Made by a program: the position numbers and the translations under genes. The notes under the pieces were generated by a model. That model did no database searches. It worked only from the letters and a program-made list of their open reading frames with translations, and had not been told where the DNA came from. 64,000 bases of DNA. Source: Escherichia coli. GTDB lineage: Bacteria > Pseudomonadota > Gammaproteobacteria > Enterobacterales > Enterobacteriaceae. The stretch lies in the NCBI RefSeq assembly GCF_030013595.1, contig NZ_CP122768.1, one strand, 5' to 3'. Of this stretch, positions 2,441 to 34,803 are shown piece after piece (the stretch's first letter is position 1; each line of letters starts with the position of its first letter).

Positions 2441-2911
2441 TTAAAAACGCGCTAGATAAGAAAATTTAAGGCTAAGTGTCCCAACGATACCCCCATCACT
2501 AGAATCATCGTCATAATCGGTATTAGAAGCTACTGGAGTGATATCTGAAATTGAGAAGCCCAAATCTTTAAAACGTGGGTTATCCGGCTGAATCTGGATT
2601 ATCTGGCAAATACCCTCATGAATTTTGGTTTCATGAATCTGAGAATACAATTGCATTTCGATAACGCATTCAGCTTGCATTGCATTACCGCCACGGACCC
2701 TATTGTAAGTCTCATTCATTCCGGTGATCCAACAAACCACGTCATCACTAAAGCCTTGCTGAGTTTGTTCTACGTTTAAAGCCAGACCTAAATCTTGTTC
2801 GATAATATCCTGCAAGGCGCGTTTGATTTTCAGTCTAGGCATATTATTAACGGTAGCGAGCATGTGTACCCCCTGCCAGAGTGATAAAGCAATCAGTTGT
2901 ATTGTCACCAT
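2441..2911 (-). CDS. Hypothetical virion morphogenesis/neck protein (156 aa as tracked; more likely ~140 aa from ATG at 2863)
   Basis: ORF track; internal ATG at 2861-2863 has a GGGGG SD, first ATG has none; sits in the head-tail module. Confidence 0.4.
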   Translation of the reverse strand: MVTIQLIALSLWQGVHMLATVNNMPRLKIKRALQDIIEQDLGLALNVEQTQQGFSDDVVCWITGMNETYNRVRGGNAMQAECVIEMQLYSQIHETKIHEGICQIIQIQPDNPRFKDLGFSISDITPVASNTDYDDDSSDGGIVGTLSLKFSYLARF

Positions 2912-7427: not shown

Positions 7428-9332
7428 TTAGAACGATGTTACCCAGCTACGGCCTCTATTTGGGCGTCTGACGATGTTTTGACGTTGTGGTCGTGTGATT
7501 GGCTTAGTTTCTTCGATTTGCTCGTCAGATTGCGATTTAGGAGCTTCTACAGGTTCTTCTGGTTCACGGTTCAAACTATCTTTGATGGCTTCGAGTTTTT
7601 CCCATGACATTTTATTGAGTACATGACGAGAAGCAGCATAGGAATAAGCCAGGCAGTCCAACGCTTCGTTTCGTGTTTGTCCAACTTTTACCCAACGTGT
7701 GGTATTACCCTGCCGTTTCAACTGTTCAGAAAGCAATTGCTCGCAATAGTCATCAGGAACGTCACCAATCTGGAAGACAGTGTGAGGATCGCCATCTCTC
7801 AAGTTCCGGTTAATCATTTCACGGATCATCGTTTTAAGGTTGTTTACGCCCAGAATTTTAAGGGTAAAACCACCCGTTCTTGTGTCTTTTACCGGAAGGA
7901 TTGGTGCATCAACATTGCTTGCGCCTTTAATGGCGGTTAGATTTTGCCACCGACTACAGAATCGATAGATCACGTTTGTAGCTCGTCCGTTCGATGAGTC
8001 CACGAAAGCAGATAACATCGGGATTCGTTCACCGGATCGGGTATAGAATTTAGCTTTCAGGAAGTTGTAAAGCTGGTTATATGCTGGTGATTCGTGGCGT
8101 TCGCAGTTCACATCATAGAATGATCGGTGATCAACTACGCATAGCCCTTTACGAGAAATACCCAGCAAGGTAGATTCCAGACGGTCTTTTTGCTGGTCAA
8201 CTCCACCTACCAGAGCCAGTACATCATCAGGAATATTGTCTAGGCTAATATCAGTTTTCAGCGTTTCTAATTCGTCGGCTGTGCGGTCTTCGTTAAGATC
8301 ATCGAAGGTTTCACCGAGGACTGTATTGTAGAACGTTGCCAGGGACATATTCGCGTAGCTATCAGCAAAGTCCACCACACACGCACGGATAGAACTAAAC
8401 GGAGACATAAGGCGGTTAGCATGAAAACCGATTACTTCCGCGTTTGGTTCGGTGGCGACCCATTCTCCCTGTCCAACAGCACGTAGGCGATCACCCTCGG
8501 TCCAATCGGTTTCACATTCAGGGCAACGGTAAACGGCTGTATCTGGGTTGGGTAATGATTTACCGTTAATCGTATGCCAATCGAAATGTACGTTACTCCA
8601 TTCCATTACGTGCTTGTGTCCGCAATGCTGGCAAACGACATGATATTTTCTCTTATCCGAGAGTTCCCATTGTTGGTTAATCGCCCCATCACGAGCGGTT
8701 GGAGTGGAAGCAATTACGATCCTTGCATCTTCCCCGAAAGTGGTTGCGCGTTGTTCCGCTAGTTGGATCGGGTTCCCTTCGTCTGACTCATCAGCCGCAT
8801 CAACTTCATCAAGAATAATCAAAGGGAGTGTTTTACCGCGAAGATGTGACGGACTATTCAACGACATGAAATACATAAACGATCCGTTACGAAGCTGAAT
8901 AATCGATGAGTTGTTAACGGCATTGCGATCTGATTTGTCGGTGATCATCGCCTTTAATTCTGGTGTTGCCTCTAATACTGGCTTCACCTTACCAGCGATC
9001 CAAGAATTTAGTTCTCTAACGTTACTTTGCAACACCCCAATATTAGTAGGGTTACTCGCGATCCGATGGAAGATAATTCCGTTAAGAATCATGGTCTTAC
9101 CCAACTGTGCCGAACATTTAAACACAATTTTTCTACGGTCTTCGGTGATCGCGTCCATCATTCCACGTTGGAAGGGATGCAATTTAATTAGCGATCCGGC
9201 TTTAACACCATCGGTTGCAACTACATTAGCCTCTACCCATTCGCTAGGTTTCATCGTTTTAGGTGGGCGAATTGCCGCAGAGATATTTTTAAGAATCTTT
9301 TTTAATTTTGCCTTGTTCGAAATCAGTTTCAT
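7428..9332 (-). CDS. Terminase large subunit, lambda GpA family, 634 aa
   Basis: ORF track; recalled lambda gpA similarity: ..HPFQRGMMDAI.. near N-terminus, Walker-A-like KCSAQLGKT, C-terminal RNEALDCLAYSYAA matching gpA RNEALDCFVYALAA. Confidence 0.85.
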   Translation of the reverse strand: MKLISNKAKLKKILKNISAAIRPPKTMKPSEWVEANVVATDGVKAGSLIKLHPFQRGMMDAITEDRRKIVFKCSAQLGKTMILNGIIFHRIASNPTNIGVLQSNVRELNSWIAGKVKPVLEATPELKAMITDKSDRNAVNNSSIIQLRNGSFMYFMSLNSPSHLRGKTLPLIILDEVDAADESDEGNPIQLAEQRATTFGEDARIVIASTPTARDGAINQQWELSDKRKYHVVCQHCGHKHVMEWSNVHFDWHTINGKSLPNPDTAVYRCPECETDWTEGDRLRAVGQGEWVATEPNAEVIGFHANRLMSPFSSIRACVVDFADSYANMSLATFYNTVLGETFDDLNEDRTADELETLKTDISLDNIPDDVLALVGGVDQQKDRLESTLLGISRKGLCVVDHRSFYDVNCERHESPAYNQLYNFLKAKFYTRSGERIPMLSAFVDSSNGRATNVIYRFCSRWQNLTAIKGASNVDAPILPVKDTRTGGFTLKILGVNNLKTMIREMINRNLRDGDPHTVFQIGDVPDDYCEQLLSEQLKRQGNTTRWVKVGQTRNEALDCLAYSYAASRHVLNKMSWEKLEAIKDSLNREPEEPVEAPKSQSDEQIEETKPITRPQRQNIVRRPNRGRSWVTSF

Positions 9333-9423
9333 GTAATTACCCTCATTACGAAATATGAAGGTATTTATTAAATTGTTGATATTTTGATAAATATGGGTAT
9401 TAAGGCAGAGTTCTTTATGTCGG

Positions 9424-9453
9424 TTGACGATGGAGAACTTTTTCCGATAAAAT
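9424..9453 (+). promoter_or_regulatory. Candidate sigma70 promoter for the 77-aa gene
   Basis: TTGACG, ~17 bp spacer, ATAAAA/TAAAAT about 45 bp upstream of the start codon. Confidence 0.4.
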
Positions 9454-9498
9454 GTAAGTCCTCTAAATAAAGGTGAACATTCACTTTAATTTGGAGAA

Positions 9499-9732
9499 AT
9501 GACTATGACTACTAAAGCTACTCGCGGTCGCCCTGCCCGTTATACTCGTGAACAGATGGCTGATATTGCCTACGCTTACTATACAGCGGATCGCGGGAAG
9601 GAAGCGAAAGAACAGATTCTTAGTGAACATGGGATTTCAGTAGCCCAATTCTATAAGAATATGAAGAAGTTAGACATTAAATTCTATGTTCAGATCGATG
9701 ACGGTCAGATCGTAGAAGCAACAGGTTTTTGA
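9499..9732 (+). CDS. Small putative DNA-binding protein, 77 aa (paralog of 13446..13628)
   Basis: ORF track; N-terminal RGRPARYTRE motif shared with the second small protein (ARPVKFTRE); own promoter and terminator. Confidence 0.45.
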   Translation: MTMTTKATRGRPARYTREQMADIAYAYYTADRGKEAKEQILSEHGISVAQFYKNMKKLDIKFYVQIDDGQIVEATGF

Positions 9733-9740
9733 TTCTCTTT

Positions 9741-9764
9741 GCCACTCTTCGGAGTGGCTTTTTT
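9741..9764 (+). terminator. Rho-independent terminator of the 77-aa gene
   Basis: GCCACTCTTCGGAGTGGC followed by TTTTTT. Confidence 0.6.
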
Positions 9765-9792
9765 GTATCTAAGTTATTGATTTTCTCGAACT

Positions 9793-9835
9793 TCACAATT
9801 TGTGGGAGTCGGGAAACATCCACAATTTGTGGGAG
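9793..9835. repeat. Two direct copies of CACAATTTGTGGGAGT (27-bp period), each with an 11-bp palindromic core CACAA-T-TTGTG
   Basis: Read directly; lies between two convergent terminators. Confidence 0.6.
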
Positions 9836-9844
9836 TTGGATAGT

Positions 9845-9872
9845 AAAAAGCCCCACCATTACGGCAGGGCTT
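9845..9872 (-). terminator. Rho-independent terminator of the 183-aa gene
   Basis: Minus-sense AGCCCTGCCGTAATGGTGGGGCT followed by TTTTT. Confidence 0.55.
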
Positions 9873-9876
9873 CTAA

Positions 9877-10428
9877 TCAGATTCCGAAGATGTCACATAG
9901 GTCGGCTGTGTGGCGTTCTTGTTTTGAATAGTAAATCCGTTCAGCTTCATATAACGTGATAGAATCATCATTAACGACGGTTTCAAACTCCCCTTCTATT
10001 ACCCTTTCTGTGTGCGCTTTACTGCGTAATTCGGCCTCTTCCATGCGATATAAGCCAATACAGATACTACCATATACACCATATTTTTTCTCGTCGAGAT
10101 GGCGACGACCTTTGCGTTGTTCGAACGGAAGATCGTAAGCGGTTATCTTTTTGCGGCGAACTCGATCATATCCACTCTCTTTGGCATCAATCATCATACT
10201 AATCAACATCCCACATTTAACAAGGGATTCAAGGCACTGACGAATAGAATTAGTTCTTGATTGTTTTAATTCTGGGTTAGGATCGTAATATGGATTATCT
10301 ATCCATGATTCATGAATAAGGAAATGTACGTCATCAGCCGTTAAAGGCCAACCACCAACACTTTCAACATCGGTCTTAGTACAATCAAACAGATCCAGAA
10401 TGAATTTCTTTTTGTGCGTCATTTTCAT
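9877..10428 (-). CDS. Hypothetical protein, 183 aa
   Basis: ORF track; last gene of a four-gene minus-strand operon; no family recognised. Confidence 0.45.
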   Translation of the reverse strand: MKMTHKKKFILDLFDCTKTDVESVGGWPLTADDVHFLIHESWIDNPYYDPNPELKQSRTNSIRQCLESLVKCGMLISMMIDAKESGYDRVRRKKITAYDLPFEQRKGRRHLDEKKYGVYGSICIGLYRMEEAELRSKAHTERVIEGEFETVVNDDSITLYEAERIYYSKQERHTADLCDIFGI

Positions 10429-10523: not shown

Positions 10524-11363
10524 TTAGATACCAAAGACAGCAAGTGATCCGGCGTTCTTACGAATCAATGCGGCGGTATTATTAACGATTGCACGAGCAT
10601 TGTTAGGCTGCGGTAATTTCAAAGTTGCTATCGTCTCTTCCTCAATCAAGCCCAATTCAACCAGCACTGGTAAACAGTCAGTTGTGAACTCAAGCTGACC
10701 ATGTGCTGATTGTCGGGCATACATGTAAGCAGGAGGAAGAACATCATAGCCACAAGGCTTACCAGAAGCATCCAGACGGCGCTCAATGTGTTTAGCCTCA
10801 CACAATCCCTTAAGAATACGTTGTACCTTCGTAGAGCCTCGTTTTTCGCCCAATAAGCGGGTTAAGCTGTGCCCGTCAATGGCACGGCGAACATGAAGAT
10901 CAATTAATTGTTCTTTTTCTTCCGCTAAAGTCAGAGCCTTACGAATCCAATCAACTTCGGTCATCTTGCTTGCGTCTGGGAAAGCGTTATTCTTTAATTC
11001 TTCATTTTCTTTCTTCAAACGCTGCCATTCATCAACCAGCATTGCGGTATAAACCGGATCGGTCTGTGCGATAACAATGTAGCTATCACGTTCAGTCAGA
11101 AGATAAACTTCAATTGGTTTGCCTTTACGGCCTAAACGGTCAGTTTTTGACCAAAACGCCACTGGCGGTTTGGTTACAATTTGAGCTTCAACCAGACGAT
11201 CAACCGTTCTCATAATATCGGTGTGACGGTTTTCACGCCCCATTAGTTCAGCAATACGCCAGGTAGAAATTGATAATTCTTTCTCTACAGAGTCATTTGC
11301 AGCAGTCAGGTCAACAGAAGAAGCAGTTTTAACAGCAGTATTCATAGTAGTAACAGTATTCAT
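10524..11363 (-). CDS. Rha-family phage regulatory protein (antirepressor-like), 279 aa
   Basis: ORF track; N-terminal ..STWRIAELMGRENRHTDIMRTVDRL.. resembles the Rha-domain pattern (recalled); C-terminal domain unrecognised. Confidence 0.5.
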   Translation of the reverse strand: MNTVTTMNTAVKTASSVDLTAANDSVEKELSISTWRIAELMGRENRHTDIMRTVDRLVEAQIVTKPPVAFWSKTDRLGRKGKPIEVYLLTERDSYIVIAQTDPVYTAMLVDEWQRLKKENEELKNNAFPDASKMTEVDWIRKALTLAEEKEQLIDLHVRRAIDGHSLTRLLGEKRGSTKVQRILKGLCEAKHIERRLDASGKPCGYDVLPPAYMYARQSAHGQLEFTTDCLPVLVELGLIEEETIATLKLPQPNNARAIVNNTAALIRKNAGSLAVFGI

Positions 11364-11451
11364 AGTAGTAATTCCCCTTTCGGTTTAGTGATATTGATCC
11401 TCCTAGTTCCGGCATCACCACCGGAACATTTTTATTTATGATAGAAATTTA

Positions 11452-11784
11452 TTACCAATCGATTTCTACTTGGTCTTCTTCATAATAAGGAATCGCATAT
11501 TCATAACGCCAATTTTCGATGATTTCACGTTCTTCATTAGTAAGAAGGTGATTGTTAACTGGAGTCGCATTGTGATTACCAGCTTCGAATTGCTCGCGAA
11601 CTTCCAGCATTGCATGAATACCAGTTAAGGACATCAGATCAAACGGAACATGCATACTACGGGAGATTGTTTCACGGGATACGCCCCAATCATTTTCTAC
11701 ATGGCTAGGGGTTACAGAAACGGTTTTGCCGGAGATTTTAACAGTCCAGTCATACAGGGATTTAGTGATGGTAAATTCTTTCAT
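11452..11784 (-). CDS. Hypothetical protein, 110 aa
   Basis: ORF track; directly downstream of a consensus promoter. Confidence 0.4.
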   Translation of the reverse strand: MKEFTITKSLYDWTVKISGKTVSVTPSHVENDWGVSRETISRSMHVPFDLMSLTGIHAMLEVREQFEAGNHNATPVNNHLLTNEEREIIENWRYEYAIPYYEEDQVEIDW

Positions 11785-11825
11785 GTTACATCCTCTTTAC
11801 AAATCTAGGTCAAATAGGTTCAAAG

Positions 11826-11883
11826 TTGTCAAGTGCGATAATCATAAAAAAGTTTGAAGATATTGTCAAATACCACTTGACAA
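11826..11883 (-). promoter_or_regulatory. Consensus sigma70 promoter (TTGACA-17-TATGAT, minus strand) bracketed by a 10-bp inverted repeat TTGTCAAGTG / CACTTGACAA
   Basis: -35 at plus 11864-11869, -10 at plus 11841-11846; inverted-repeat arms at 11826-11835 and 11874-11883. Confidence 0.5.
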
Positions 11884-11905
11884 GACACCAAAGGGTTGAC
11901 CTAAC

Positions 11906-12094
11906 TTACAGCATATCTAAGCCTTCATCGTAACCGTAGAAGCCATTCTGAGAAGAGAAGCAGATTGGTGCGTAGTCGTCGTCATCTTCGTCTTGTTCAT
12001 CTTGTTCTGGGGCTTCCTGAGCGGTTTCTTTGCCGTAGTTAAACATGGCTTCATCCAGTTCATAGTGGAAATCCTCTAAAAGAAAGTGAATCAA
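11906..12094 (-). CDS. Small strongly acidic protein (62 aa from TTG; 46 aa from internal ATG); frame uncertain
   Basis: ORF track (TTG start); acidic run EAPEQDEQDEDDDDY; an alternative overlapping frame has the better SD. Confidence 0.25.
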   Translation of the reverse strand: MIHFLLEDFHYELDEAMFNYGKETAQEAPEQDEQDEDDDDYAPICFSSQNGFYGYDEGLDML

Positions 12095-12700
12095 TCTAAT
12101 ATTATTTATAAAGAGAAAATTCTTGTTATTATGAAAGGAGTGATCTGGTAGAGTCCAAAACTGGTCTGTACTTGAAAGGTGATTGGATTCAGTCGGGCAA
12201 AGCCCTCCTTCATGTTTTGATTAAATCATCATCAAAACGAAGAAGTATCTTTAGAATATAAGATCTTTCTTTTGGAGAAATAATAATCAGGAAGCAATTT
12301 GGCAACCGAAGGTTGCAATCCCGAAGGGATAACCAATACCTTTCTAGAAAGTGATTGTTACTCACTTCGTTCGTTTACTAGAATCAGTTATCATCTGGTA
12401 TTAAATCCCTTTCTAAGAAAATCCTTTCAAAAGTGATTCTCGATGCCACGCAGTGGCGTCGCAGACGTTTGGGAGTGAGCGAAGCGAGCGAGCAAACTAG
12501 TTAATTCCTTCTAAGACCATCTAGTATCATCTAGTTTAAATTAGTTGTTACTAGAAGCAATTGGTTGGCGCTTCGCGCAGTCGGGCTAAAGCCCTCCTAA
12601 TTATCTTTTTGGTTATTTGTTGTTTTTAGTTTTACACATGAGCGTAGCGAATGTGTTATATAATATCTATGCACGCCCAATCCCCCGCTTTTTCCCCTCA
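12095..12700. other. ~600 bp hairpin-dense non-coding region (candidate structured RNA or DNA-level origin/packaging signals)
   Basis: No ORF; many short-loop hairpins (GCAACC-GAA-GGTTGC, ATCCC-GAA-GGGAT, GCCAC-GCA-GTGGC, GCGC-TTC-GCGC); CTAG-rich; ~20-bp direct repeats CAGTCGGGC(T)AAAGCCCTCCT at ~12190-12209 and ~12578-12598. Confidence 0.5.
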
Positions 12701-12743
12701 CTAAGTTAATGTTTTATAAAGAGTTTTTCTCACCAATCCTTTT

Positions 12744-12931
12744 CGGGGGCAAATTTCAGGGGCAAAAATTAGATTTTCAGGGGCAAAAATAGTGGGTTTC
12801 AGGGGCAAAAATGAGGGGCAAAATCACTGTTTCCCAGAATTTCAGGGGCAAAAATAGTGGGTTTCAGGGGCAAAAATGGGATGTGGAATCTAGGGGATTT
12901 TGGTTCAGGGGCAAAATTCAGGGGCAATTTT
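12744..12931 (+). repeat. Iteron array: 9 copies of (TTCA)GGGGCAAAAAT, including an exact 38-bp duplication
   Basis: Read directly; copies at ~12746, 12759, 12780, 12802, 12815, 12845, 12867, 12908, 12921; 38-mer TTCAGGGGCAAAAATAGTGGGTTTCAGGGGCAAAAATG at 12777 and 12841. Confidence 0.85.
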
Positions 12932-12968
12932 CATAGTGTAGGGCTAGTGTAGGTTTGAAAATCCTTTG

Positions 12969-13025
12969 TTGACACTGTGTAGGATCGGTGGTATACTTGA
13001 AAATTCGAGATAAATATGTTATAAT
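12969..13025 (+). promoter_or_regulatory. Tandem near-consensus sigma70 promoters next to the iterons
   Basis: P1 TTGACA (12969-12974), 17 bp, TATACT (12992-12997); P2 TTGAAA (12997-13002), 17 bp, TGtTATAAT (13017-13025). Confidence 0.55.
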
Positions 13026-13171
13026 ATTTGTATTGAAAGTGAAAATTTACCGATTTTCCTTCCTATTGTTATCACCGTGTTAAATTGTTATATGTCTGTG
13101 AAGATTTGGATCTGAGAGAAAATCTTGTAACAAATCTTTACAATTCATAGCTCAATTAATGCTCACCGCTT

Positions 13172-13310
13172 TAGCAAAAAGTGCTATGCCTTTTTCTAAA
13201 TTGATTGAATATACATCAATTTGGTTAAATCGTGTTCTTCGCTTTAGCAATTCGTGCTGTGGTTTAACACATTTAACACGTCTGATAACATCTGAATAAC
13301 ATTTTAACAT
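13172..13310 (+). promoter_or_regulatory. Operator-like palindromes and phased TAACAY repeats upstream of the 60-aa gene
   Basis: TAGCAaaaagTGCTA (13172-13186) and TAGCAattcgTGCTg (13245-13259); five TAACAC/TAACAT copies at ~10-11 bp spacing in 13264-13310. Confidence 0.45.
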
Positions 13311-13445
13311 ATCTCTGTTATAAATACATATATAAGAGATAAATGTGAGGGGTTGAAAAATAAAATACAATCCCATATAAATAATAGTGAGCGGTTAACG
13401 CTCTTTTTTAAGAAATCATTAATCCACATTGTAGGAGGATTCGAG

Positions 13446-13628
13446 ATGGCACGACCTGTTAAGTTCACTCGCGAAATCATCTTAGAAATGGCTAAACGCT
13501 ACTTTGAGTTAACGCCGGGTGTGAGAATTGAAGAGTGGTTTAAAAATGAGGGCATCGATAAATCAACCTTTCATAAACTGCTAAAACGATATGACATTAA
13601 AGTGAAGATTGAAGCTACCGTTTGGTAA
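13446..13628 (+). CDS. Small putative DNA-binding protein, 60 aa (paralog of 9499..9732)
   Basis: ATG with AGGAGGA SD inside tracked ORF 13353..13628 (which begins at TTG); MARPVKFTRE motif. Confidence 0.5.
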   Translation: MARPVKFTREIILEMAKRYFELTPGVRIEEWFKNEGIDKSTFHKLLKRYDIKVKIEATVW

Positions 13629-15345: not shown

Positions 15346-15903
15346 TTAAGACACATCAAATTCATCGTCTTCTTCTGGTTCTTGTTCTTCCGGTTCATCC
15401 ATTAATGGTAATTCTTCTTCCTCGTCTTCTCCCAAATCTGCATTTTCGAACAAGTCCCCTACTTCATTTAAACGACGCTCGATGATCTCCCTTAGCTTAT
15501 TCTTTAATGTTTTCTGGTCATTGGCAGATTCGAGAATTTCTAGGGCATCGATCGTACAAATCTGCAAAATAGTCTGCTTCACTTTCCCGCAATATTCCGC
15601 TAGTTGCTGTTCTACATAACCGACAGGAATCAGGAGGTTCATTTTTTCCTGATTCTCTCGTTCGGCTGCATCTGCCATTGCTCTTTCTCTGCGGAGACGT
15701 TCTTGATCAATCGCTTCTTTGATTGAAGTTTGTTTAAGTGGGTTAATTACGTTCTTTAGCACCCAATCGCAACCTTCCTTTGCCGGAACACGCCTCTTAT
15801 TGGTATTGTAAGGTAGTCCCCTTTCTAACCATCGCTTACCGCCACCATTCAATGTATAGCCATATAAACGGGAAATTTCTGTAAGGGTTAATTCTTCTTT
15901 CAT
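15346..15903 (-). CDS. Nu1-like small terminase subunit candidate (winged-HTH protein with acidic C-terminus), 185 aa
   Basis: ORF track; strong GGAGGA SD; GGGK and W.ERGLP motifs loosely like lambda Nu1 (recalled); first gene inside the element boundary. Confidence 0.4.
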   Translation of the reverse strand: MKEELTLTEISRLYGYTLNGGGKRWLERGLPYNTNKRRVPAKEGCDWVLKNVINPLKQTSIKEAIDQERLRRERAMADAAERENQEKMNLLIPVGYVEQQLAEYCGKVKQTILQICTIDALEILESANDQKTLKNKLREIIERRLNEVGDLFENADLGEDEEEELPLMDEPEEQEPEEDDEFDVS

Positions 15904-17398: not shown

Positions 17399-17404
17399 GT
17401 CATT

Positions 17405-17445
17405 TATTGCCGGATGCGGCGTGACGCCTTACCCGGCCAACAATA
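17405..17445. repeat. REP element
   Basis: GCCGGATGCGGCGTGACGCCTTACCCGGCC palindromic unit in an intergenic region. Confidence 0.5.
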
Positions 17446-34763: not shown

Positions 34764-34803
34764 CGCACACAGGCGGAGGAAAAACCTCCGCCTCTTCCAC
34801 TCA

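Follow-up and report, generated by a model that had tools for sequence, protein, structure and literature searches.

The window, by which we mean the whole analysed stretch of 64,000 nucleotides, opens in a prophage whose right part occupies positions 1 to about 16.7 kb and whose insertion interrupts hicB in an E. coli-type chromosome, with the host genes rlhA/ydcP, sutR, ydcO, and tehAB lying beyond it. The prophage carries a gpA-type large terminase gene (7428-9332, minus strand), and it also encodes a lambda-type portal and a protease-capsid fusion. About 57 of 5,426 complete E. coli genomes have relatives of this prophage. In phage and plasmid collections no match to the locus was found, the closest sequenced terminase being 44% identical, and a scan of species-representative genomes for the locus returned nothing. 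Members of the same prophage family are inserted in hicB (the window, at about 16.4–16.8 kb, and strain 266917_2) or in ycdX (CFSAN061761), with the host gene split each time, and the complete relative CFSAN061761 has a large serine recombinase at the far prophage end.

The subject of this work is an inter-terminator spacer of 80 nt (9765..9844), called here the array, which is flanked by two convergent intrinsic terminators. Upstream of it lies a plus-strand gene of 77 aa (9499..9732), whose product has an RGRP arm and resembles a resolvase-type HTH weakly, below the threshold; the gene is followed by its terminator (9741..9764, plus strand; GCCACTCTTCGGAGTGGC plus T6, stem 9741-9758). On the other side of the array lies the resident Roi/Rha-family gene, allele J (10524..11363, minus strand), which encodes an N-terminal pRha-type winged helix, a coiled coil, and a C-terminal KilAC-like domain. 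Between this gene and the array there is a 183-aa ORF (9877..10428, minus strand) with a Roi-like helix motif and a C-terminal FGI tail as in the Roi/Rha protein, and this ORF is followed by the terminator of the minus-strand operon (9845..9870; GCCCTGCCGTAATGGTGGGGC plus T5, stem 9850-9870). The resident gene has an intragenic palindrome of its own, ACCAAAACGCCACTGGCGGTTTGGT (11150..11174), with 11/12 pairs, at the wing codons TKPPVAFW, and it is unlike the palindromes of the array.

Several further features of these neighbours were recorded. The resident Roi/Rha-like protein and the extra ORFs that some loci have between it and the array (183, 178, 214, and 228 aa; relatives L001-L044) all end in F-G-I or F-G-L, which suggests a common C-terminal docking peptide for a partner. 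Small paralogous proteins that have in common a "(R)GRPxxFTRE" arm and, downstream of it, a motif that is alike are encoded by the 77-aa gene, by 13446-13628 (plus strand, 60 aa), and by 11421-12023 of relative L001 (200 aa), with the last appearing to repeat the motif; this 200-aa gene is deleted in the window, where its last ~70 nt are left at 9400-9470. Just 5' of the ribosome-binding site of the 77-aa gene, at 9466-9491, a 26-bp palindrome (AATAAAGGTGAACATTCACTTTAATT, 10/12 pairs) is kept in CFSAN061761 and could be an operator or the terminator of an upstream gene.

Farther along the prophage, an iteron-like array at 12740-12930, with about nine copies of TTCAGGGGCAAAAAT at a spacing of 13-22 nt in an ORF-poor region, is probably the prophage replication origin, and the same 15-mer makes up the right arm and tail of the minus-strand terminator beside the palindrome slot in many relatives (GCCCCTGAAATTCAGGGGCAAAAAT). 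The ~1.7 kb from 11785 to 13445 contain no ORF of ≥100 aa, many short G+C-rich hairpins together with promoter-like sequences, and no Rfam match; the equivalent gap is unannotated in CFSAN061761, and the region could be an immunity/regulatory region or encode non-coding RNAs. An ORF near the prophage end (15346-15903, minus strand) matches PHROG 57, "terminase small subunit" (E 2.7e-11), and lies 6 kb from the gpA-type terminase gene with divergent genes between them, an unusual separation. ARAGORN reports a 91-nt tRNA-Gln (anticodon TTG) at 2586-2676 (plus strand), inside and antisense to a 156-aa ORF (2441-2911), which is possibly a false positive. The only REP-related match in the scanned region, to the Rfam family naRNA4 (an RNA derived from REP) and below threshold, falls at 17399-17438 (minus strand), in host DNA ~0.7 kb past the prophage end.

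Repeats and palindromes between the terminators

The initial annotation of this stretch had described two 16-bp direct repeats at 9793-9835, and they are present one position away from that: CACAATTTGTGGGAGT occurs exactly twice on the plus strand, at 9794-9809 and 9821-9836, with starts 27 nt apart, in agreement with the 27-bp period it had given. The match between the copies extends to 19 nt (CACAATTTGTGGGAGT[C/T]GG, at 9794-9812 and 9821-9839), and a weaker similarity is present over the full 27-nt unit. Given that a shuffled window yields 0.85 matches to the 16-mer at ≤3 mismatches, two exact copies are not a chance occurrence, and the repeat unit is also kept in relatives. The core CACAA-T-TTGTG, likewise annotated for each copy, is found at 9794-9804 in repeat unit 1 (9794..9820), and in repeat unit 2 (9821..9847) it is part of a longer palindrome, CCACAA-T-TTGTGG, at 9820-9832; the tail of unit 2 enters the A-tract of the minus-strand terminator. 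At 9770..9782, 12 nt from the first palindrome, the minus strand has a perfect match to the IHF consensus WATCAANNNNTTR, in the form AATCAATAACTTA; matches to this consensus in the window number 10 against 3.7 expected.

The placement of the repeats between convergent terminators with no adjacent promoter was also correct, since no sigma-70-like site was found within 9733-9880. The boxes themselves (9794-9832) are unlike intrinsic terminators, having A/T-rich arms of 5-6 bp and no T tract, and the terminator scan lists only the two flanking terminators. The spacer folds better than its shuffles on both strands (z −2.7 and −3.3), and no Rfam family was found in or near the array. The partial DnaA-box match that had been pointed out in the second copy does not hold up as a signal: ATCCACA is there, at 9818-9824, but when read as a DnaA box (ACATCCACA) it agrees with TTATCCACA at 7/9 positions only, against a criterion of 8-9/9, and it carries no information because 7/9 matches occur 244 times in the window vs. 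184 expected by chance.

Coding origin of the spacer and the palindrome inside Roi/Rha genes

By masking the arrays of all loci and then searching their units against the loci, we found where the spacer comes from. Positions 9769..9812 (minus strand) are identical at 43/44 nt to L003 3283-3326, a segment of the Roi/Rha coding sequence of allele L in the prophage of E. coli MEI003 (NZ_CP071263.1, about 230.8-231.7 kb), which encodes ...RFPQIVKFEKINNLG...; the IHF consensus encodes KINNL in this source gene, and the copied segment is oriented like the neighbouring gene, with its sense strand on the minus strand. The entire spacer is, in fact, Roi/Rha gene sequence, namely a ~55-nt fragment of the codons for the winged-helix DNA-binding domain of allele L in which 27 nt have been tandemly duplicated, as seen from the second copy, which continues the homology to allele L on its right side. 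The spacer copy is of allele L, and the resident gene is of allele J, the intragenic palindrome of which is a different one. The same holds for relatives, where every identifiable array unit matches one short gene segment of some relative's allele, in the same orientation, with matches of 21/21, 22/23, and 27/31 nt to alleles A, F, and H, and of 21/25 nt to allele O of strain BS74R-D. A module, TAAGTnnTTGATT, recurs ahead of some of the palindromes, and on the gene strand it reads AATCAAnnnnTTA, a perfect IHF consensus that encodes (K/I)INxLG. We therefore conclude from these alignments, with high confidence, that the spacer derives from the Roi/Rha gene of a foreign allele.

The Rha-like proteins of this family exist in at least 15 alleles that differ in a ~95-nt block between near-identical flanks. 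In an AlphaFold model (pLDDT 71), the N-terminal winged helix is followed by a coiled coil and then by another domain, winged-helix-like, at the C terminus, and the variable block covers the recognition helix plus the start of the wing; a fold search with the model gave weak MarR-like winged-helix matches only. At the wing codons, 11/14 alleles contain a palindrome of 24-28 bp with 9-11 of 12 pairs, a quality that is met elsewhere about once per 5 kb. The two arms covary: among 13 allele sequences, 79.8% of the cells are paired, vs. 59.4% in shuffled sets (0/500) and 36–49% when the partner is slid, and in 12/14 palindrome pairs changes are found on both sides, consisting of the reverse-complement codon pairs A/R, L/E, S/G, K/F, and L/Q. 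When synonymous codons are drawn at random for an unchanged protein sequence, the expectation is 90.9 ± 5.2 pairs, vs. 154 observed. The mismatches are balanced, 23 of G.T type vs. 17 of A.C type, and there is therefore no sign of a single folded strand, so the idea of a single-strand hairpin with strand bias was left without support. On the sense strand, 7/14 alleles have T4-6 after the intragenic palindrome, and the terminator scan flags alleles H and D as terminator-like.

The palindrome is also present in 6/6 distant pRha-ANT genes, from Citrobacter-like, Erwinia, Rhizobium, and Halomonas-like sources and from metagenomes, with perfect 11-bp arms in the Rhizobium gene, which makes the gene element ancient. 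In these distant loci (L199-L204) and in HK022 roi (34785-34795), the wing codons that bear the palindrome are of the D-A-L-x-F-E-R-I type, and codon choice keeps it even in the G+C-rich Rhizobium genome, where AAA TTT is used. In the cases seen, a recognition helix with KNV goes with CTC/GAG arms and one with KHV goes with TCC/GGA arms. Literature searches gave no description of intragenic palindromes in pRha genes or of arrays such as these.

The closest precedent is the Roi protein of phage HK022, which consists of a pRha-type N-domain plus KilAC (Pfam: ANT 9.7e-33, pRha 2.5e-5; for comparison, allele A matches pRha at 1e-13). By BLASTP, the N-domain of Roi shares 50% identity with allele E (E 5e-29) and 31% with the window protein (E 5e-14). 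The roi palindrome, CTGCATTGCAG (CTGCA-T-TGCAG), lies at the homologous wing codons, with an IHF consensus 16 nt downstream, and this combination of a palindrome plus WATCAANNNNTTR at homologous codons is shared by HK022 roi and alleles L, E, and B, with allele M having the IHF consensus with a variant spacer. Clerget & Boccard, in 1996, reportedly observed that Roi binds inside its own gene close to an IHF site, with IHF making the binding more stable. The likeness is, therefore, that of a homologous protein with a palindrome at the same wing codons and a perfect IHF consensus 12-16 nt away, and the window spacer is a copy of this same palindrome-plus-IHF module. The differences are that the window copies are extragenic, duplicated, of a non-self allele, and set within a multi-allele array; we know of no out-of-gene, multi-allele box array in HK022. 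The comparison is one of sequence, in which the roi palindrome is a candidate for the site that Roi binds.

The inter-terminator slot among relatives

Inter-terminator spacers were taken from 43 loci, of which IMG/VR supplied 33 and E. coli genomes, the window included, the other 10. These spacers fall into 27 distinct spacers of 14-247 nt with conserved terminators on both sides, and in most relatives the homology to the window ends just past the plus-strand terminator. The slot is empty in 12/43 loci (a spacer of 14-15 nt), which means that the array is dispensable, and the other loci hold from one to about seven short palindromes. Their arm sequences all differ and only the form is common, with arms of 5-7 bp, a centre of 1-6 nt, and in many cases GATG or ATC flanks; some units with an imperfect palindrome have persisted in several arrays. 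Filled arrays usually begin with GTAT(C/G)T and end with AGATAC. The empty-slot spacer of L009, ATACCTACAGATAC, is reversed in L016 (GTATCTGTAGGTATG), with the T run of one terminator and the A run of the other at its sides. A motif search in relatives, which the initial annotation had proposed as a check, gave a mixed result: the exact motif was found in three of them, as copy 2 only in L001 and L002 and inside the gene in L003, but most relatives hold other palindromes of a like kind. Boxes of the window type are limited to the window and these three relatives, with paired changes (CCACAAtTTGTGG, CCTCAAaTTGAGG, CCTCAAtTTGAGG, and CCTCCAtTGGAGG).

The content of an array has no visible relation to the allele beside it. 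The box of the resident allele itself is present in the array in 2/26 combinations vs. 1.6 expected, that is, at chance level, and the boxes are therefore not auxiliary operators for the phage's own protein; for this reason both self-operator/looping and self-avoidance were left unsupported. No further copies of the resident allele's box were found elsewhere in the prophage, and the two prophages of the one double lysogen examined (BS74R-D) show no cross-match between box and allele. No promoter-like site was found in or beside the arrays. Array units occur in 21/5,426 E. coli genomes and only at this prophage locus, a distribution that, along with the lack of any Rfam match in the spacer, led us to reject membership in the REP/BIME class. 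Outside genes, such arrays were met in this E. coli prophage family alone, and the six distant pRha-ANT loci have none within 1.5 kb. In a metagenome scan with the terminator sequence, the hairpin proved common in unrelated contigs, and 3 loci of the family were recovered.

Other candidates were also considered and dropped. The 77-aa HTH protein was rejected as the specific binder, being 92–97% identical (in 20 of the 33 IMG/VR relatives) beside unrelated arrays. A CsrA sponge, with GGA motifs 3' of the stems, was discarded given that the "GAT/ATC" flanks are Asp and Ile codons, many units have no GGA, and no promoter is present, and arrays of repeat RNAs (CRISPR, type III antitoxin) were set aside because the units differ from each other and the array lies behind a terminator with no promoter-like site.

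Proposed mechanism, alternatives, and known systems

We give an even chance to the reading that the repeats are an orphan, duplicated, non-self copy of the cis-element contained in Roi/Rha genes, a palindrome plus IHF site that would be the box of a cognate protein. Among the possible roles, protein binding is the best supported because a dimeric winged-helix protein, an allele-specific palindrome within its own specificity codons, an adjacent IHF consensus, and the lack of a wobble strand bias all point that way, and we consider binding to the boxes moderately likely. The initial annotation had suggested a protein-binding site rather than a promoter operator, and in this respect it anticipated the option that the palindrome and IHF consensus now favour, having overlooked that the site is a copy of coding sequence and belongs to a hypervariable array. 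Its proposal to assay IHF was apt, and the results weigh neither for nor against its roadblock idea. In the mechanism that we propose, Roi/Rha regulators would carry a cis-element in their own gene, a short palindrome at the codons of the N-terminal winged-helix wing, with an IHF site ~12 nt from it in the window's subfamily, and a dimer of the matching-allele protein would bind each box with the assistance of IHF, as is said of Roi. An allele-L copy of this element lies in the transcriptionally quiet slot between the convergent terminators of an allele-J prophage, and the window would thus hold two orphan type-L boxes and one IHF site, with the boxes occupied only when the cell also contains a type-L relative. 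If selected, the boxes could serve as a decoy, a sensor, or a roadblock, and if not, they would be tolerated leftovers. The known kind of element to which they would belong is the Roi-type intragenic operator, and the extragenic position, the foreign allele, and the array would be what is new.

A bolder version, which we hold to be improbable, is that the slot is a selected library of foreign-allele boxes and that every pRha gene in the family has an autogenous operator co-encoded with the wing of its protein. Such co-encoding would explain the reverse-complement covariation of the codons; the resident prophage could then detect, sequester, or obstruct the regulator of a competitor, or be acted on by it (eavesdropping, hitch-hiking), and the set of boxes would turn over with changes in the alleles present locally.

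The alternative that deserves the most attention, a serious one although in our judgement less likely than not, is that the spacer is a non-functional remnant of a Roi/Rha gene, that constraint acts in the gene, and that nothing binds or uses the palindromes here. The scrap would have come in by illegitimate recombination or template switching, helped by hairpins or bound protein, and have been duplicated by slippage. This would suit a slot that is dispensable, hypervariable, empty in so many loci, transcriptionally silent, and filled without relation to the resident allele, as well as the presence of decayed or imperfect units, such as AGTCCA...TTGACT, the 6-nt arm deletion of L007 vs. L035, and a lasting T.C mismatch in the GCGCTTAA unit; some units are also non-coding because of stop codons in the sense orientation. 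However, scraps taken at random would be expected to come from elsewhere in the gene as well, and the palindrome-bearing segment is the only one found, from at least ten alleles, always in gene orientation, and sometimes as bare 20-nt units in series. In addition, the arms shift mostly by compensatory pairs with the centres free (CCACAATTTGTGG vs. CCTCCATTGGAGG, CCCTCA/TGAGGG vs. CATCCA/TGGAGG, ATCCA vs. ATTCA), and the unit ATTCAA-AC-TTGAAT is perfectly palindromic, whereas its closest allele (B) is not. The stop codons, when read in the frame of the gene, and the unexplained palindromy also count against silent mini-cassettes, a highly improbable alternative in which an untranscribed bank of donors would swap the wing codons of Roi/Rha by gene conversion, as in pilS/pilE or vls. 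It is true that the units span exactly the most variable codons, match real alleles of other phages, share the orientation of a gene 0.7-1.5 kb away in a silent zone, and have short conserved flanks (AGATG / CATCT). Nevertheless, the alleles differ over ~95 nt including the recognition helix, which is never in the units, and the flanking homology is 4-7 nt for many units.

An element acting at the RNA level, with hairpins in transcripts and an intragenic attenuator or terminator in the gene, is a still doubtful proposal that we rate as quite unlikely, less so than the mini-cassettes; in the array, its counterpart would be back-up terminators, a sib-type 3' retroregulator reached by read-through, or an antisense or decoy against the rha/ant mRNA of relatives (cf. 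P1 c4, P22 sar). The T runs behind half of the intragenic hairpins, the terminator-like alleles H and D, and the folding scores of the window spacer are what it can claim, but a T tract is missing from the window boxes and from most array units, the distant pRha genes keep the palindrome without one, and the array lies beyond strong terminators on each side with no promoter-like site. The wobble-type mismatches without strand bias, palindrome centres that at 1-4 nt are too short for kissing loops, and the empty Rfam result weigh against it as well. Least credible of all, and barely plausible to us, is an essential cis site beside the terminase gene, be it cos/pac, a replication origin, or a partition or recombination site, the last two of which the initial annotation had named. 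The gpA-type terminase gene is indeed near, the combination of an IHF consensus with repeated sites resembles lambda cosB, and some units recall lambda ori iterons in form. However, the array is missing from 12/43 otherwise intact relatives, which speaks against any site that the phage must have for recombination, partition, packaging, or replication, and cos/pac or origin membership was rejected since such a site would be conserved in all functional relatives and would vary in step with the terminase or initiator. Arrays are, moreover, wholly different beside near-identical terminase and 77-aa genes, a separate conventional iteron array exists at 12740-12930, and the prophage integrates via a serine recombinase at its ends.

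Returning to the orphan-box reading, its interest comes from the fact that few proteins are annotated as "regulator" or "antirepressor" in phage genomes as often as Rha, Roi, and KilAC and that their function is barely understood. The intragenic palindrome, kept through amino-acid and codon choice (154 vs. 91 pairs), is a candidate operator for any member of the family, and about fifteen natural alleles with different boxes offer a specificity series for protein-DNA recognition. The orphan foreign boxes, if bound by protein, would point to cross-talk or interference between related prophages. Should the arrays be neutral, they would be the record of an unusual site-directed illegitimate recombination in which one 20-55 nt gene segment has been copied repeatedly.

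Several known systems help to place these elements. IHF-binding REP/BIME sequences (RIP/RIB) sit between convergent E. coli genes, and they share with the present arrays the short palindromes plus an IHF site past convergent terminators and a strain-variable copy number, but there is no sequence relation, and the units described here are confined to one locus, derived from coding sequence, and have much shorter, allele-variable arms. Baculovirus hrs, with units of ~70 bp that are near-identical within a genome and act as origins and enhancers bound by IE-1, offer an analogy only, namely, arrays of imperfect palindromes beside Bro/Rha/KilA-type genes (bro) in rearranging regions; the size, uniformity, and origin/enhancer function of those units set them apart. 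The silent cassettes of pilS and vls are also untranscribed variant copies of the most variable segment near an expressed gene, whereas the units here are far shorter, contain the allelic block only in part, and have no homology at their flanks that could be used. Intragenic auxiliary operators are known in lac (O2 in lacZ) and gal (OI in galE), and here too a palindromic operator would lie within a coding sequence and a second distant site could permit looping; the difference is that the distant sites here mismatch the box of the resident protein, so self-looping would not occur.

The lambda ori iterons in gene O and P22 pac in gene 3 are sites within the gene of the protein that recognises them, and they resemble the Roi/Rha element in being allele-specific cis sites in the variable part of a DNA-binding protein's gene, an arrangement by which site and specificity stay linked through recombination. 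In contrast to the present boxes, of which foreign-type extra copies accumulate elsewhere, those sites are indispensable to replication or packaging, and each genome type has one. In two lambdoid relatives, inverted repeats of the GTGGTGACACAGAGTCACCAC type were found in O-like (HTH_36) replication genes (L200 2454-2537 and L202 2594-2618), which are the expected ori iterons; we took them as an informal positive control for the notion that a gene can contain the site of its own product.
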